Of a stretch of 32,000 nt of DNA, positions 9,001 through 10,278 are shown in pieces. Location: assembly GCF_000237865.1 (NCBI RefSeq), contig NC_017459.1, positions 120,001 through 152,000 of the forward strand. The letters run 5' to 3'. Source of the DNA: Haloquadratum walsbyi C23 (GTDB taxonomy: Archaea > Halobacteriota > Halobacteria > Halobacteriales > Haloferacaceae). A program made the position numbers and the translations under genes. The notes beneath the pieces were generated by a model. That model was not told the DNA's origin and ran no database searches. It saw only the letters and a program-made list of their open reading frames with translations. Each line of letters starts with the position of its first letter. Position 1 is the stretch's first letter.

Positions 9001-10278
9001 AGTCGACTCCAGCGGCTTCGCGATGACGACCGGGTTCTCGAACGAGCGCGGAAGCCTGACGGTCCGGAAGTCGGTCGTCCCCTCAGGGTTGACCGTGATC
9101 GAGTCGTATACGAGGTCTCCTGGTGGCGTGCCGCCGTTTCCGGCCTCATCAGTCGCGGTGACGGTCACCGACTGGGTCTGCTCGCTCGGGTCCGGACCAA
9201 CGGTGAACGTCGCACTGTACACGTCGTCGGCCGCAGTAGAGTTTGGGCCGTCGTCGCTGAGATTCACTGTCCCCGCATCGAACGCGATCGCGGAGGCAGT
9301 GACAGACTGGATCGAGGACACGTCGGTCACAGTGGCGCTCACTTCGATGGTGTCGTTCGTCGTGACGACACTGCCGCCGTCGATTCGTCTGATCGTGACG
9401 TTGGTGACGTTGGGTGCGCCGGTGTCGACGGTGAAGCTCACTGTGTCGGTGTCGACGTTCCCGCTGTTGTCTTCGATGTAGACGGTCGCAGTGTGCGACC
9501 CATCGACGAGTCCCGACAACGTCACATTCAGCGTCTGGGTGCCGTTGGCGTCAGTCGCCGTCTGATTGGGGCCGCCGTCGACGCTGTATATCCAGTTGCC
9601 CGATTCATTGGCGCTGACGTTGAGCGAAGCGTTGCTCGTGGTGAGCGTCGCACCTCCCGCTGGCTGATCGATACTCACGTTCGGCGCGGTTGTGTCTGGT
9701 TGGTGAGATGATTCGACGATCGAGACGTTATCGATAACCATACCCGCTCTGCCGCTTGTGGGAGTTATCTGCGTAAATTTTAGTGTTTCAGTTGTGTTAC
9801 CGGCTGTGAAATTGTGAGTCGCCAGTGTCCAGTCCATTGAGCTATTCGCTGTTTCCGTTATGTTGAGATCAGCAATCTCCACTCTAGCTTCATGCTTTCC
9901 TGTATATTCCGTGTTGTTCTTATAATAGTACGTAAGCTCGTAGTGTTTCTCAGCTTCTAACTCAGTCACATCCTGTTCAATAGCTCCGGGTTCGCCGCCT
10001 GAGAGATCGATCGAAACGGAACCATCCTGTGGTGGCCAAAAATTTCCTACTTGATCAACTTCGCCCGACGACACGCGCCAGCCATCAATTGTAGTCGACC
10101 CCGCGTCGAGTTTGTTATTTGTCTCATCCGAACCAAAGTTGTTTGAAGAGTTCTCAAAACTCCCATTCTGAACCAGGTTCGGTTGCTGTGCAGACACCGA
10201 CTCAATGAAAGCTACTCCCGAAATAAGCACACTTAATGCGACAACAACCGCGAAAATTGGTTTTGCCGTCTGACTCAT
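1..10278 (-). CDS. Giant secreted modular surface/exoprotein. Only the N-terminal 3426 codons are in the window, and the ORF continues past the left edge. Domain order is signal peptide, DUF642/CBM-like domain, Ig-like domains, three-fold H-lectin-like repeat, then at least 3 beta-helix modules rich in GLUG-type GGLxG repeats (halomucin-like).
   Basis: The minus-strand ATG at 10278-10276 has an in-frame TAG five codons upstream. Hand translation gives MSQTAKPIFAVVVALSVLISGVAFIESVSAQQPNLVQNGSFENSSN. Spot translations in the same frame (left codon base = 1 mod 3) at 8281-9000, 6901-6960, 4561-4770, 2401-2460 and 1-60 are all open and coherent. Examples are TDVSATGDVNASSTPGNGRR, GFNGEHVGGLIGVIDHESGA and VGGLVGNNNGALSDAYWDKGATNQTGATGSGSSAGATGFGTVGDTRALEMQGRAPTTFMKPLNYTSPWK. 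At the window edge the frame reads VGDDTQALEMQGRAPTQFMS. No listed minus-strand ORF between 1 and 10278 lies in this frame. That is expected if the frame has no stop and the track drops ORFs lacking a stop inside the window. Confidence 0.9.
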   Translation of the reverse strand, partial: MSQTAKPIFAVVVALSVLISGVAFIESVSAQQPNLVQNGSFENSSNNFGSDETNNKLDAGSTTIDGWRVSSGEVDQVGNFWPPQDGSVSIDLSGGEPGAIEQDVTELEAEKHYELTYYYKNNTEYTGKHEARVEIADLNITETANSSMDWTLATHNFTAGNTTETLKFTQITPTSGRAGMVIDNVSIVESSHQPDTTAPNVSIDQPAGGATLTTSNASLNVSANESGNWIYSVDGGPNQTATDANGTQTLNVTLSGLVDGSHTATVYIEDNSGNVDTDTVSFTVDTGAPNVTNVTIRRIDGGSVVTTNDTIEVSATVTDVSSIQSVTASAIAFDAGTVNLSDDGPNSTAADDVYSATFTVGPDPSEQTQSVTVTATDEAGNGGTPPGDLVYDSITVNPEGTTDFRTVRLPRSFENPVVIAKPLESTSSKKDSEDVATEKRGHTRIRNVQSDSFEIRVEEWSNQDNGHPTANVSYIVAEAGTTELDDGTKVDAGTTTLSEGTINSVAFNQSLSGTPIGFTQPQTFNDPDAVSTRNQNIDSNGLDVFIQEDEASGNDGTAHGTETIGYIAIEQGDSVLGETNFTADEISGVNNQLKKITFDDPHPAGFIADLQDSSGGQPAYLRYDDRTKDSVDVRVEEDAAIDKDGHAPTTVGYLAWNASTQVTGTRSNTLAVDTSPPSIDSVTITRTGGTAPLSEGDTFDINATVSEAGSITTATADVSALDADSDSVTLTDTGNGNFTGNVTVGANPALSREVIVSMTDSLGNNASATTIAGSQASWDHEVNGTIQTGTFAGNGSTVDPYIIDSLVDLQAINKNATTRGYNYQLGSDLDASATRSWNVPSEHGKGFAPIGGLFGIDSGAAFSGSLDGGGHTISNLSIDQSATTKNELGFVGTLESGGVVRNLALTNVSVVGDRHIGAVVGESAGTVQNVTVSGTVEGRREIGGVVGTVTSGGTVNNVSASVTVTASGQYAGGLIGDHQSSTPVTDVNASGAVTGTSYTGGLVGRARTGVINASASGDVTSTSGDRVGGLIGNHNPNQAATIRNVSASGNVSGSGNRVGGLVGSSESGNQITVSDVHATGDVVTTNTGTYAYAGGLFGELRHATDVTDVSATGDVNASSTPGNGRRVGGLFGELHHDQANYIVANASASGDVDTTGQRVGGLIGYHDKGRTINNVTATGDVSTVGKRVGGLLGETDASVIRESSASGDVNSTSGNKVGGLIGDHRPNQAATIKSVSASGNVSTSGQKVGGLVGTSETTDRITISNAHATGDVNATETGTNSYVGGLFGRLRHAVDVTNVSATGDVSAQDNSYGRQVGGLFGQLHHDSANYILTNASATGDVDATGRRVGGLIGYHQNGEVVRDATATGDVSGGAGYAGGLIGDHTNGETIENVSAIGDVASDGDYTGGLFGRVSASVSNSSASGTVTSTSGGYVGGLIGEHRPNQAATIESVSASGNVSAGGQKVGGLVGASESGNQITVSDAHATGEINATETGTNSYAGGLFGRLRHAVDVTNVSATGDVSAQDNSYGRRVGGLFGELHHDSANYILTNASATGDVDATGQRVGGLIGYHQNGEVVRNATATGTVSGGGDHIGGLLGQTDASNIRESTASGEVNSTSGDRVGGLIGDHRHNQAATITNVSASGNVSTSGQKVGGLVGTSESVNQITVSDVHATGDVVTTNTGTYAYAGGLFGRLRHATDVTNVSATGNVNISSASGNGRRVGGLAGELHHDSANYILTNASATGNVDATGQRVGGLIGYHQNGDRVETSYARGDVSTDGDYVGGLIGDTNGGSITDSYARGDVNSSGDYVGGLVGEASGDVKRVYASGRVEGGSTVGGLVGNNNGALSDAYWDKGATNQTGATGSGSSAGATGFGTVGDTRALEMQGRAPTTFMKPLNYTSPWKLTSTYPVFQRESNTTGPSLSPIDSMEASDTTALQTEQTTIDVTATVDGTPADAGYVIRVDNADGLTELADAGAVTDANGTATFTFAESAIGTFEPTFGAAGESTVSTTATVEVEPGTVRTYTRDDDTELTATYPGNGTDTSPYLLDSLADLQAININATTRGEQYRLAEDIDTSATNNASWNSGNGFEPIAGESGTFDGTLDGDGHTISNLSVNRSDTSTAGLVGTLDSSGVIQNLTIQNASVTGSDDLGVIAGTSDGTIQNLTIENASVTGNNDVGVTVGINTGTVQDVTASGTVIGNDRIGGLVGTVNSGGVLTDSTAAATTSGSKSIGGLVGQSSGAVNNASASGTVTATGQYAGGLIGDHQSSTPVTDVSASGAVTGTESTGGLIGRAQANVTDSSASGRVNGTTGSNVGGLIGEHDPTQVATIANVSASGDVSTSKGVRVGGLVGSSISGSPVTILNARADGNVTTSDLSGNNAFTGGLIGEIQNAKNVTNVSATGQVNASIAGKQGVNGRVGGLIGSFEHESASRIVANASATGDVATDTNGQVGGLIGTYSGGGTVEDSNARGNVSATGQSVGGLLGSADASIIRRSSATGDVNSTGSNVGGLIGKHDPSQVATIANVSASGNVSTRNQGAGGLVGAIQTSPVSISDADASGDVTAAVGSGRGYVGGLIGEIRNAKNVTNVSASGQVNVSASTGFNGEHVGGLIGVIDHESGANIVANASATGDVNADAAGPTGGLIGGTEGTLGTVQDSYAQGNVSGTGPVGGLIGQTNGDTARVYASGRVEGNSGLGGLIGDNSGQISESYWDKGATAQSDATGSGTPDGATGYGSVGDTTPAPQMQGRAATELMDGLHYTTTWNVTRGYPVLQAQSTGTEQPPRTVNTVTATNASAIQSEQVSVSVTVTTAGTSTAEGLIVGVQDTGGLTSLENATAVTNETGTATLSITESDTGTFSPTFTVVGYSTATANATVTVSDGAVRTYVREDGEELTAVYSGNGTADNPYLIDSLADLQAIDNSSAARADNYRLAEDIDTSATGNASWNGGSGFEPIAPFTGSLDGNDTTISNLSINRSGASTAGLVGALDSNGAIQNLTIQNASVTGSDELGVVAGTNDGTIQNLTVEDASIDGVNDLGVAVGANNDTVQNVTASGAVRGSDRIGGLVGTVNSGGVVTDATTTATANGSQSIGGLVGESNGAVNNASASGTVTATDQYAGGLIGDHQSTTPVTDVNASGAVTGTSYIGGLLGRGQADVINASAGGSVNGTSGGYVGGLVGQAKSSSGNPITVSNAHASGVVNATNTGTDAYTGGLVGEFQNAGNVTDVSATGDVNASDPGGGNLVGGLFGELHHDSADHILTNASATGDVDATGQRVGGLIGYYKDGDGVETSYARGNVSTDGDYVGGLIGDTNNDGSITDSYARGDVTTSGDKVGGLVGETEDVDVTRSYASGRVKGGSTVGGLVGNNTGQLSGAYWDKGATNQTAATGSGSSGGATGFGTVGDDTQALEMQGRAPTQFMS
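5041..7386 (-). repeat. Tandem array of four coding units inside the giant ORF (unit starts 5041, 5602, 6253, 6820; periods 561, 651 and 567 bp, all multiples of 3). More diverged copies lie near 454, 2362 and 2932.
   Basis: The anchor GTCAAC(G/A)T..CC.GTGGCCGA.GC.TT.GTCAGGATGT recurs at these positions. In a hand count, 5161-5280 versus 6949-7068 differ at 6 of 120 nt (95% identity). Confidence 0.8.

Follow-up and report, generated by a model that had tools for sequence, protein, structure and literature searches.

The GC jump within the halomucin gene of Haloquadratum walsbyi C23 lies on the linker joining a lectin-like head to the surface-protein body

Haloquadratum walsbyi represents the one low-GC genus in a high-GC family, and the cause of this drift is debated. 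The halomucin gene is the largest compositional exception of H. walsbyi. Where in this gene does the exceptional composition begin, and how did DNA of two compositions come to share one reading frame? The window analysed here (the whole stretch of 32,000 nucleotides) contains a giant open reading frame that starts with an ATG at 10278 on the minus strand and exits the left end; no fewer than 3426 of its codons lie within the window. The products of four flanking genes are identical in sequence to C23 entries (CCC39080.1, CCC39084.1, CCC39089.1 (= Hqrw_1119), and CCC39096.1), and the window is therefore assigned to H. walsbyi C23. The published coordinates of the divergent region DV1 (108448-129921), the 119 and 559 codons of its flanks, and the length of 7836 aa (PMC3119063) fit exactly when window position 10278 is taken as C23 position 130278, with the window spanning C23 positions 120001-152000. 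The homology searches did not return the deposited Hqrw_1107 protein. The open frame, the flanking matches, and this arithmetic identify the gene as hmuI, whose remaining ∼4410 codons lie left of the window. Sequence reading, profile searches, and repeat families showed an N-terminal Sec signal sequence and long GLUG-type direct repeat arrays, and capB and capC are adjacent on the same strand (11053-13454). The gene and its neighbours are:

1..10278, minus strand: the 5' 10.3 kb (codons 1-3426) of hmuI (halomucin), Hqrw_1107, 7836 aa, H. walsbyi C23
11053..12219, minus strand: capB (PgsB-like), a native low-GC neighbour with GC3 0.39, exact match to C23 CCC39080.1
12222..13454, minus strand: capC (PgsC-like), GC3 0.43

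The high GC and biased codon usage of hmuI are already known. Synteny of capB/capC with a ‘large, high GC gene’ in Haloquadratum walsbyi was reported in 2006 (Bolhuis et al. 2006, PMC1544339), and in 2011 the gene was described as a %G+C peak that shows ‘highly biased codon usage’ (Dyall-Smith et al. 2011, PMC3119063), so that the main phenomenon is not new and the present discovery is incremental. The published peak (HBSQ001, C23; PMC1544339, PMC3119063) concerns the same gene and the same strain, and these papers describe the gene or DV1 in its entirety; DV1 has 57.7% G+C (PMC3119063), and its part inside the window 60.2%. The hmuI literature that we searched holds no account of a step within the reading frame at codon ∼196, of its coincidence with a DTxAP linker between a DUF642 and an Ig-like domain, or of the DUF642 head itself. 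What is added here is the position of the GC jump, on the linker that joins the lectin-like head to the body. The features of this region are:

10189..10278, minus strand: Sec-type signal peptide, type A, aa 1-30 (...SVSA/QQ), GC3 0.42, read from the sequence
9718..10179, minus strand: DUF642 / choice-of-anchor-C / CBM_4_9-like lectin-type head domain, aa 34-187, GC3 ∼0.47, from a profile match
9642..9699, minus strand: GC3 change point (2-lnL support interval, from maximum likelihood with permutation), on the linker ...SIVESSHQP-DTTAPNV-SIDQP
9427..9696, minus strand: first Ig-like (Big_13) domain, aa ∼195-284, GC3 ∼0.78-0.85, single copy within the window (Pfam 28.8 bits, cut-off 27)
9426, minus strand: second DTxAP linker (DTGAPNV, aa 285), the CTLD-deletion junction, from allele comparison
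9921, minus strand: published edge of the strain-common flank, 119 codons in, where DV1 starts inside DUF642 (PMC3119063, mapped by arithmetic)

A preliminary description of this DNA had proposed a sharp GC step inside one frame at about 9720, and the GC3 profile bears the step out while moving its position. GC3 is 0.46 for codons 1-196 and 0.78-0.85 thereafter; in 60-codon windows it stays at 0.45-0.50 up to codon ∼180 and reaches 0.82-0.85 from codon ∼211, with GC1 and GC2 nearly flat at ∼0.5 and GC2 rising slightly. The maximum-likelihood change point falls at codons 196-209 (2-lnL support interval, codons 193-212), and its flanks differ clearly (0.45 for codons 157-196 against 0.78 for codons 197-236). 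Thus the step is present, but at 9642-9699, 20-80 nt downstream of 9720. Total GC is 0.468 at 9691-10278, 0.605 at 1-9690, and 0.469 in the rest of the window, where 14 neighbouring genes have GC3 of 0.35-0.48. In principle, amino-acid composition could produce such a step artificially, as could the chance choice of 60-nt lines, and the body is indeed richer than the head in Gly, Thr, and Ala. When expected GC3 was calculated from amino-acid composition and host synonymous usage, however, the body stood at 0.68 against an expected 0.37 (z=37) and the head at 0.46 against 0.40 (z=2), so composition fails to account for the difference, and the shift to G/C endings affects every amino acid with a synonymous choice. 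None of 1000 shuffles gave a likelihood ratio as high as the observed 50.9 (null maximum, 18.2). The comparison with expected GC3 and the permutation test rule out an artefact, and we give that reading practically no weight.

The domain assignments made earlier from the letters were upheld by profile matches, which run in the order DUF642, Big_13, and GLUG (E=3e-95). The DUF642 match is strong (PF04862, E=6e-16, 59.1 bits against a 27-bit cut-off, profile positions 1-156/157), and the head also matches CBM_4_9 (E=4e-6). The NCBIfam model TIGR04362 reached E=1.6e-30, but its 106.5 bits lie below the 120-bit cut-off, and the sub-family name is therefore not earned. The compositional step (∼9690) comes ∼80 codons after the boundary at which the published strain divergence begins (codon 119, 9921), and allele identity profiles fall around that boundary; the two positions are different. 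The step coincides instead with a DTxAP motif that starts at aa 195 (9696), between DUF642 and the first Ig-like domain. DTxAP is a short conserved inter-module linker that begins each Ig-like module, and it is found at four module boundaries in allele L020, where chance would give 0.05 per protein.

The pattern of low and high composition occurs in every allele, and across five alleles GC3 is 0.44-0.54 in DUF642 and 0.70-0.78 in the Ig-like domain. In allele L017, with the order signal peptide-DUF642-Ig-DUF642-Ig, GC3 alternates accordingly (0.77, ∼0.45, ∼0.78, ∼0.43, and ∼0.85). L020 has its low-to-high step at ∼codon 80, within a Cadherin-like domain and not at a domain boundary. The window allele is nearest to L018 over the signal peptide (0.98; 98% nucleotide identity for type A) and over the Ig-like domain (0.90), whereas over DUF642 it is nearest to the L017u2 unit (0.93), with L018 at 0.75. 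L017 and L019 instead carry signal peptide type B, which is GC-rich (GC3 0.79). Moreover, the C23-type allele joins ...VSFTV/DTGAPNV at aa 284/285 relative to L018, L019, and L020, and lacks the ∼800-codon CTLD block of other alleles; the profile search of its in-window part gave no Lectin_C match, and the published C23 deletion comprises HBSQ001 codons 283-1075 (the CTLD pair). These comparisons establish the DUF642/Ig junction as a recombination breakpoint among alleles, and demonstrate that composition travels with the module through duplication and allele shuffling.

Codon usage differs on the two sides of the step. The per-codon log-likelihood score (LLR) is +0.08 for the head, +0.22 (sd 0.055) for host segments, and -0.25 for the body. 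The relative synonymous codon usage (RSCU) of the body correlates with that of chromosomal genes of high-GC haloarchaea (r=0.90) and of ∼58%-GC haloarchaeal plasmid genes (r=0.96), but not with that of host genes (r=-0.02). The suggestion that the head is native fared less well. Its GC3 is near that of the host, but its codon-usage score falls beyond the range of the 63 host-gene segments, a search of 5.8 billion proteins returned no paralogue of the head in Haloquadratum or other haloarchaea, and in other alleles DUF642 is a low-GC island behind a GC-rich signal peptide.

Relatives of the body were found in GC-rich contexts, at only 48-64% identity. In the halomucin-like gene L025, whose body is 64% identical, high GC extends over the whole length and takes in the signal peptide (GC3 0.96) and the 89 nt upstream (65% GC). 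A standalone secreted protein (P0011) that matches one body module is encoded on a 66%-GC haloarchaeal contig with GC3 0.86. No near-identical donor of the body was found, the best non-allelic matches being 30-58% identical, and no relatives were found on viral contigs. In Haloquadratum sp. J07HQX50 the giant GLUG gene reaches GC3 of no more than 0.50-0.66, which argues against an intrinsic need for high GC. The 3' edge of the GC-rich region lies outside the window, to the left, and the right border lies within the reading frame; the window holds no integrase, tRNA target, or direct repeats marking mobility at that border, and its only tRNA (23143-23214) is 13 kb away.

Synonymous singletons among close alleles number 10 GC->AT and 0 AT->GC in the Ig-like domain, and 9 and 4 in DUF642, for which the implied equilibrium of 0.38 lies near host composition. 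In a three-allele test of the body, the window branch gave 24 GC->AT to 8 AT->GC, the L020 branch 15 S->W to 26 W->S, and the L025 branch 34:34. The allele counts in these tests are small, from short metagenome contigs that may carry errors. Internal paralogous repeats gave 51:38 (p=0.2), a saturated comparison without power, and the best-conditioned comparisons are those at dS 0.2-0.4. Because parsimony errs in GC-rich sequence towards too many AT->GC changes, the GC->AT excesses are conservative. In the C23 lineage, most recent synonymous changes run from GC to AT, and the GC of the body seems to be slowly decaying in C23.

We consider it probable, with moderate confidence, that hmuI is a recombinational chimera whose GC-rich body derives from the gene pool of high-GC haloarchaea and is declining slowly in GC. 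The signal peptide and DUF642 lectin-like head, of near-host composition, would have been joined at the DTxAP linker to a body of Ig-like, unknown, and GLUG modules. The body DNA probably entered the Haloquadratum lineage from the GC-rich haloarchaeal pool, or was last replenished from it, after much of the genome had drifted to low GC; it would have been fused to heads, or exchanged with them, by homologous recombination at the repeated linkers, and would now be losing GC slowly under host AT-biased mutation. A chimera was among the explanations offered in the preliminary description, and it gains support from the split in codon usage, the pattern in every allele with its alternation in L017, the recombination breakpoint, and the GC-rich haloarchaeal relatives of the body. 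Weighing against it are the lack of a near-identical donor among the matches, the mixed direction of change across the three-allele branches, a head that is not fully host-like and has no haloarchaeal relatives, the absence of a visible integrase or other mobility gene, and the L020 step inside a Cadherin-like domain.

The other explanation offered there, that gene conversion among internal repeats raises GC and that the composition is a by-product of repetitiveness, could be confronted with the body modules themselves:

8311..9093, minus strand: module, aa 396-656, 48% identical to the standalone 321-aa secreted protein (P0011), from a homology search
4636..7911, minus strand: super-repeat 3, four tandem GLUG units of 567-651 nt, 67-89% identical, GLUG part GC3 0.57-0.71
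2047..4167, minus strand: super-repeat 2, GC3 0.52-0.63 in the GLUG part and 0.72-0.81 in the non-GLUG part
52..1575, minus strand: super-repeat 1

With three super-repeats and tandem GLUG units of such identity, the body is highly repetitive, as repeat conversion would need. However, no DNA repeat family within the window reaches above 7911, and the stretch 7912-9651 that adjoins the junction, free of DNA repeats in the window, nevertheless has GC3 0.73 (0.80-0.85 in the first 300 codons). The highest GC3 is in a non-repetitive stretch beside the junction. GC3 is lower for codons in repeat families than for body codons outside them (0.660 against 0.708, Fisher p=0.004); the GLUG-dense tandem arrays have the lowest (0.52-0.64), and the most-copied families, D6, D7, and D9, have 0.54-0.60. 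GC3 is lower in repeats, not higher, recent changes go mostly from GC to AT, and we regard this explanation as very improbable.

An explanation with a modest chance of being right is that GC3 in the body is kept high actively, at a local equilibrium, through GC-biased gene conversion with frequent allelic recombination or through selection at synonymous sites. Examples of such selection would be a preference for NNC codons, which avoid G:U wobble, and properties of the mRNA or DNA of a 23.5-kb gene. Haloquadratum lacks A34 tRNAs, and NNT codons therefore need wobble (PMC3119063); the body also lies in a recombination-prone divergent region (PMC3119063) with mosaic alleles. In addition, the W->S excess on the L020 branch and the balance on the L025 branch favour maintenance, as do internal paralogues that are 61-74% identical and all have GC3 of 0.65-0.78 (implied equilibrium 0.67), and per-site rates on the W branch that lead to an equilibrium of ∼0.54, above the ∼0.28 of capB. 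The GC->AT excesses of the Ig-like domain and the window branch (dS 0.2-0.4) point the other way, and body codon usage is the general haloarchaeal pattern. Selection on translation would not spare 196 codons, start within ∼20, or alternate with module identity, and expression of hmuI is low (3.3 TPM; PMC5496347). A more specific form, in which the GC-rich body is a locally maintained equilibrium and not a fading import, with DUF642 exempt as a recent insert, has a small chance of being correct; recombination-coupled GC-biased repair, or synonymous-site selection in a very long mRNA, would hold it in place. hmuI resembles cases of GC-biased gene conversion in prokaryotes in being a recombination-prone gene with elevated GC3. 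In hmuI, however, GC3 is lower in repeats, recent changes in this lineage are AT-ward, and the effects reported in prokaryotes fall far short of a twofold rise in GC3 (0.40 to 0.80).

It is improbable that the gene descended vertically from a GC-rich Haloquadratum ancestor and that its body merely lags behind the AT drift. Such an ancestor, and in-situ divergence of the hmuI alleles of two strains, have been inferred in the literature (PMC1544339, PMC3119063), and halomucin-like GLUG genes are linked to cap genes also in J07HQX50, which favours a relic. A relic offers no mechanism, however, by which one segment would lag while 196 adjacent codons and all the neighbours reach GC3 of ∼0.4-0.46, and the step is sharp and placed on a recombination linker. 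Moreover, GC->AT rates per S site are similar in the Ig-like domain (0.23) and DUF642 (0.19), and the body is therefore not protected from mutation.

Under the favoured import of the body by recombination, its start at a linker, its module-bound composition, and the apparent GC decay in C23 replace a vague “GC peak” with a history that is modular and dated. They suggest that the body of a surface protein was drawn from a shared haloarchaeal gene pool after the genome drift began. Polarised variation in saltern metagenomes provides a handle on host mutational bias as against any GC-favouring force; if the GC of the body were locally maintained, the gene would serve naturally as a readout of what drives the unexplained fall in GC of Haloquadratum. 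Amelioration of horizontally acquired DNA is the classic concept of Lawrence and Ochman, and hmuI resembles it in GC3 and codon usage that are atypical for the host, in a usage like that of a plausible donor pool, and, for the Ig-like domain and the window branch, in recent changes that run in the host mutational direction. Unlike amelioration islands, hmuI has its boundary inside a reading frame at a domain linker and not at a gene or island edge, and has no integrase, tRNA target, or other mobility mark nearby. Its ‘foreign’ signature, furthermore, matches the organism's own family, since it is the host that stands apart in composition. Other giant modular surface proteins built from GLUG, Ig-like, and lectin units (large exoproteins or GLUG-domain proteins such as Swol_1078, to which PMC3119063 refers) share the GLUG arrays, Ig-like spacers, and lectin-type tips, as well as module gain and loss by linker recombination, which in hmuI takes the form of CTLD block deletion, DUF642-Ig duplication, and alternative heads. 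At 7836 aa, hmuI is far larger than these proteins and is haloarchaeal, and its shuffled modules differ so visibly in base composition that the seams between them can be read.

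The compositional step is internal to a giant open reading frame, whose features and neighbours are given below in window coordinates; the domain calls rest on profile matches.

10278 (ATG) leftward past the window end, minus strand: giant open reading frame of at least 3426 codons
N-terminus of the product, minus strand: Sec-type signal peptide
10179-9718 (aa 34-187), minus strand: DUF642/CBM_4_9-like domain (Pfam, E=6e-16)
Directly after DUF642, minus strand: Ig-like Big_13 domain (profile match)
52-1575, 2047-4167 and 4636-7911, minus strand: super-repeats with tandem GLUG units of 67-89% identity
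Upstream of the giant ORF, minus strand (same strand): PgsB/CapB-like and PgsC/CapC-like genes

Beyond Big_13, the product carries modules of unknown family and large GLUG repeat arrays (E=3e-95). Codons 1-196 (signal peptide and DUF642) are here termed the head, and the remainder the body. Four flanking proteins match C23 exactly (CapB, CCC39080.1; CCC39084.1; Hqrw_1119, CCC39089.1; LysRS, CCC39096.1). In C23, hmuI (Hqrw_1107) encodes halomucin, a protein of 7836 aa (PMC1544339, PMC3119063, PMC4378361), and is adjoined by capC and capB (PMC1544339). The flank common with HBSQ001 covers the first 119 and the last 559 codons of hmuI, divergent region DV1 spans C23 positions 108448-129921, and the C23 gene is without the CTLD pair, HBSQ001 codons 283-1075 being deleted (PMC3119063, PMC4378361). 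With window position 10278 placed at C23 position 130278, and the window accordingly at C23 120001-152000, all published hmuI numbers fit exactly. The window allele reads '...VSFTV' followed by 'DTGAPNV' at aa 284/285, the place where CTLD modules sit in other alleles. Neighbours, synteny, coordinate fit, and the CTLD junction thus identify the ORF as C23 hmuI. Three homology searches for H. walsbyi HmuI references yielded nothing beyond metagenomic fragments and distant relatives.

All 60-codon windows up to codon ~180 have a GC3 of 0.45-0.50, and from codon ~211 the value is 0.82-0.85, with GC1 and GC2 at ~0.5 on both sides. The maximum-likelihood change point falls at codons 196-209 (2-lnL support interval codons 193-212, window 9642-9699), GC3 being 0.45 at codons 157-196 versus 0.78 at codons 197-236. 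None of 1000 permutations reached the observed statistic (50.9, null maximum 18.2). A preliminary description had proposed a sharp step inside one ORF at ~9720. The computed GC3 profile confirms the step and its sharpness near that position, but the best estimate, within the linker that directly follows DUF642, is 20-80 nt downstream of the proposed coordinate. Amino-acid composition fails to account for the difference: combined with host synonymous usage it predicts a GC3 of 0.37 in the body, versus 0.68 observed (z=37), and 0.40 in the head, versus 0.46 (z=2). The shift to G/C-ending codons in the body involves every amino acid with a synonymous choice, and GC3 is 0.35-0.48 in 14 neighbouring genes. 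The compositional boundary (~9690) differs from the published strain-divergence boundary at codon 119 (window 9921), in mid-DUF642. The portion of DV1 inside the window has 60.2% G+C, against 57.7% published for DV1 overall (PMC3119063).

The central phenomenon is the published GC anomaly of halomucin, in the same gene and the same strain: hmu1 was termed "the large, high GC gene" by Bolhuis et al. 2006 (PMC1544339), and Dyall-Smith et al. 2011 (PMC3119063) reported a %G+C peak with "highly biased codon usage". No description of an intragenic step, a DUF642 head, or a relation between composition and modules was found in the papers searched. The present analysis adds the precise location of the seam, on a DTxAP linker, together with module-bound composition and evidence of recombination; it also rejects explanations by amino-acid content or repeat conversion and gives initial signs of decay toward AT.

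Repeat-driven biased gene conversion, one of two explanations offered in the preliminary description, was rejected as the source of the high GC. With repeats defined as DNA repeat families, none in the window extends above 7911, and the non-repetitive stretch 7912-9651 has a GC3 of 0.73, rising to a peak of 0.80-0.85 near the junction. GC3 is lower in repeat-family codons than outside (0.660 versus 0.708, p=0.004), lowest in the families of highest copy number (0.54-0.60), and 0.52-0.64 in GLUG-dense segments versus 0.72-0.81 in GLUG-poor ones.

The composition travels with the modules. In all alleles, including those taken from metagenome contigs, GC3 is 0.44-0.54 in DUF642 versus 0.70-0.78 in the first Ig domain, and the linker at which the step occurs is the same in every case. 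The metagenome locus L017 encodes signal peptide-DUF642-Ig-DUF642-Ig, with GC3 of 0.77, ~0.45, ~0.78, ~0.43, and ~0.85, respectively. In L017 and a further locus, L019, the signal peptide is of another, GC-rich kind (GC3 0.79), which leaves DUF642 as an island of low GC in an otherwise GC-rich gene. The L020 allele, from the 69.6-kb contig Ga0209946_1000016, is 74% identical from aa 283 onward and has another head, made up of a signal peptide, a Cadherin-like domain, and three CTLD modules; its GC3 is low solely in the first ~80 codons. This step in L020 (16-3015) falls within the Cadherin-like domain (aa 32-148), and the low-GC part looks to be flanking sequence that continues into the gene, not a complete module.

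Relationships among alleles change at the junction. The allele nearest to the window is L018 for both the signal peptide (98% nucleotide identity) and Ig (90%). In the C-terminal half of DUF642, the nearest is the second DUF642-Ig unit of L017 (93%) and L018 is the most distant (75%), whereas in the Ig domain it is the second L017 unit that is most distant (80%). Judged from these identities, the head-body junction is a recombination seam among alleles. Each Ig-type module starts with a DTxAP motif; the window protein has just two copies, at aa 195 (the GC3 step) and aa 285 (the CTLD-deletion junction), and L020 has the motif at four module boundaries, the chance expectation being 0.05 per protein. 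The repeated DTxAP linkers would offer a concrete substrate for homologous recombination, allowing module fusion, duplication, and deletion.

Two further observations concern DUF642. Compared with window 9723-10010, L019 (574-1953) is without most of the domain; the deletion, bounded by a pair of short direct repeats (tcgatcg, within the window's 'gtttcgatcgatc' and 'gtctcgatcgtc'), fuses '...DGSVSI' to 'VESS...' and resembles small-direct-repeat deletions reported for H. walsbyi (PMC3119063). Among the window (9718-10179), L001, L017, L018, and L019, median pairwise dN/dS is 0.66 in DUF642 versus 0.30 in Ig, and amino-acid identity is 66-76% versus 74-89% at similar dS. Protein evolution is thus quicker in the head domain than in the neighbouring Ig; selection on the distal lectin-like tip may be relaxed or diversifying.

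Relative synonymous codon usage in the body correlates with chromosomal genes of high-GC haloarchaea (r=0.90) and with ~58%-GC haloarchaeal plasmid genes (r=0.96), but not with the window's own genes (r=-0.02). Four-fold families show the family-specific C/G preferences of other haloarchaea, and the body signature is therefore the ordinary haloarchaeal one, diluted, not an unusual one. The same preferences led us to reject C3-specific translational selection; avoidance of oligo-T terminators was also rejected, as A3 drops as much as T3 and the head is unaffected. The head scores +0.08 per codon (host model preferred), under all 63 host-gene segments (mean +0.22, minimum +0.13), and body segments average -0.25 on the same score. 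Codon usage in the head is close to that of the host without being typical of it.

Among 5.8 billion proteins, a search with the head recovered only metagenomic hmuI alleles and two distant proteins (34-35% identity), one of which (P0003) is encoded on a 58%-GC contig beside a phage-type integrase. With so few relatives and a score below every host segment, the "native" head of the preliminary description is not established. A secreted, standalone protein sharing 48% identity with the body module at aa 396-656 is encoded on a typical haloarchaeal contig of 66% GC (GC3 0.86). A halomucin-like gene, L025, has a similar architecture in a GC-rich context; it is 64% identical in the body and GC-rich from codon 1, with a 65%-GC stretch upstream. 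The remaining body relatives, including GLUG proteins of Salinarchaeum, Halovivax, and a Natronomonas MAG, are 30-58% identical. No near-identical body donor was found in the homology search, and the viral contigs searched held relatives of neither head nor body.

The chimeric gene proposed in the preliminary description broadly holds, given the module-bound composition and the recombination evidence at the junction. We consider it reasonably probable that a GC-rich body was imported or replenished and that recombination at the linker joined it to a head whose origin was separate. The main rival, that the high GC of the body is a locally maintained equilibrium, seems unlikely to us. Synonymous singletons among close alleles (dS 0.2-0.4) number 10 GC to AT and 0 AT to GC in Ig, and 9 and 4 in DUF642; the latter imply an equilibrium GC3 of 0.38, near the host, and the loss rate per GC site is alike (0.23 in Ig, 0.19 in DUF642). 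A three-allele test over aa 283-1160, affected by saturation, gave GC-to-AT versus AT-to-GC counts of 24:8 for the window, 15:26 for L020, and 34:34 for L025, with 18:10 for a capB control on the window branch. Internal paralogous repeats were balanced (51:38), but their copies are 61-74% identical and saturated, and this comparison has no power. The polarisation rests on few alleles, the metagenome scan for body alleles having yielded L020 alone. Overall, body GC appears to be declining in the C23 lineage, but it may be partly maintained. In the sister MAG Haloquadratum sp. J07HQX50, the giant GLUG gene has a GC3 of just 0.50-0.66, so high GC is not intrinsic to such genes.

Several minor observations concern the surroundings of hmuI. 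The capB-hmuI spacer (770 nt; window 10279-11052) is 93% identical to L001 and 99% to L002, more conserved than the adjoining DUF642 coding region, and contains a 120-codon ORF (10275-10637, minus strand) that stops at the hmuI start and is without a family match; it could be a conserved leader/promoter region or a small gene. The window GC minimum (36.5%, 13500-14100) falls in the ~600 nt that separate capC from a divergent PAS/sensor kinase-like gene (14067-16616). tRNA-Gly(CCC) at 23143-23214 (plus strand) is the sole RNA gene in the window (ARAGORN and Rfam).

Syntenic capB loci in the J07HQW1 and J07HQX50 MAGs yielded no orthologous junction, the former keeping a remnant only and the latter being partly masked. 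Downstream of capB in J07HQW1 (L003, 11559-11991), all that is left is a CTLD-like fragment plus a piece of Ig with the C-terminus '...TVETRL*', and halomucin seems truncated in this genome type. The L017 gene (1566-3167) terminates at the same 'TVETRL*'; downstream the contig is 95-99% identical to J07HQW1, and upstream lies a different GC-rich gene. Both MAGs carry a second capC-capB pair (L005, L006, L024; CapB 74% identical). In J07HQX50 a fragmented giant GLUG gene lies ~8-20 kb from this paralogous pair on one scaffold, and the cap-halomucin linkage may therefore predate H. walsbyi.
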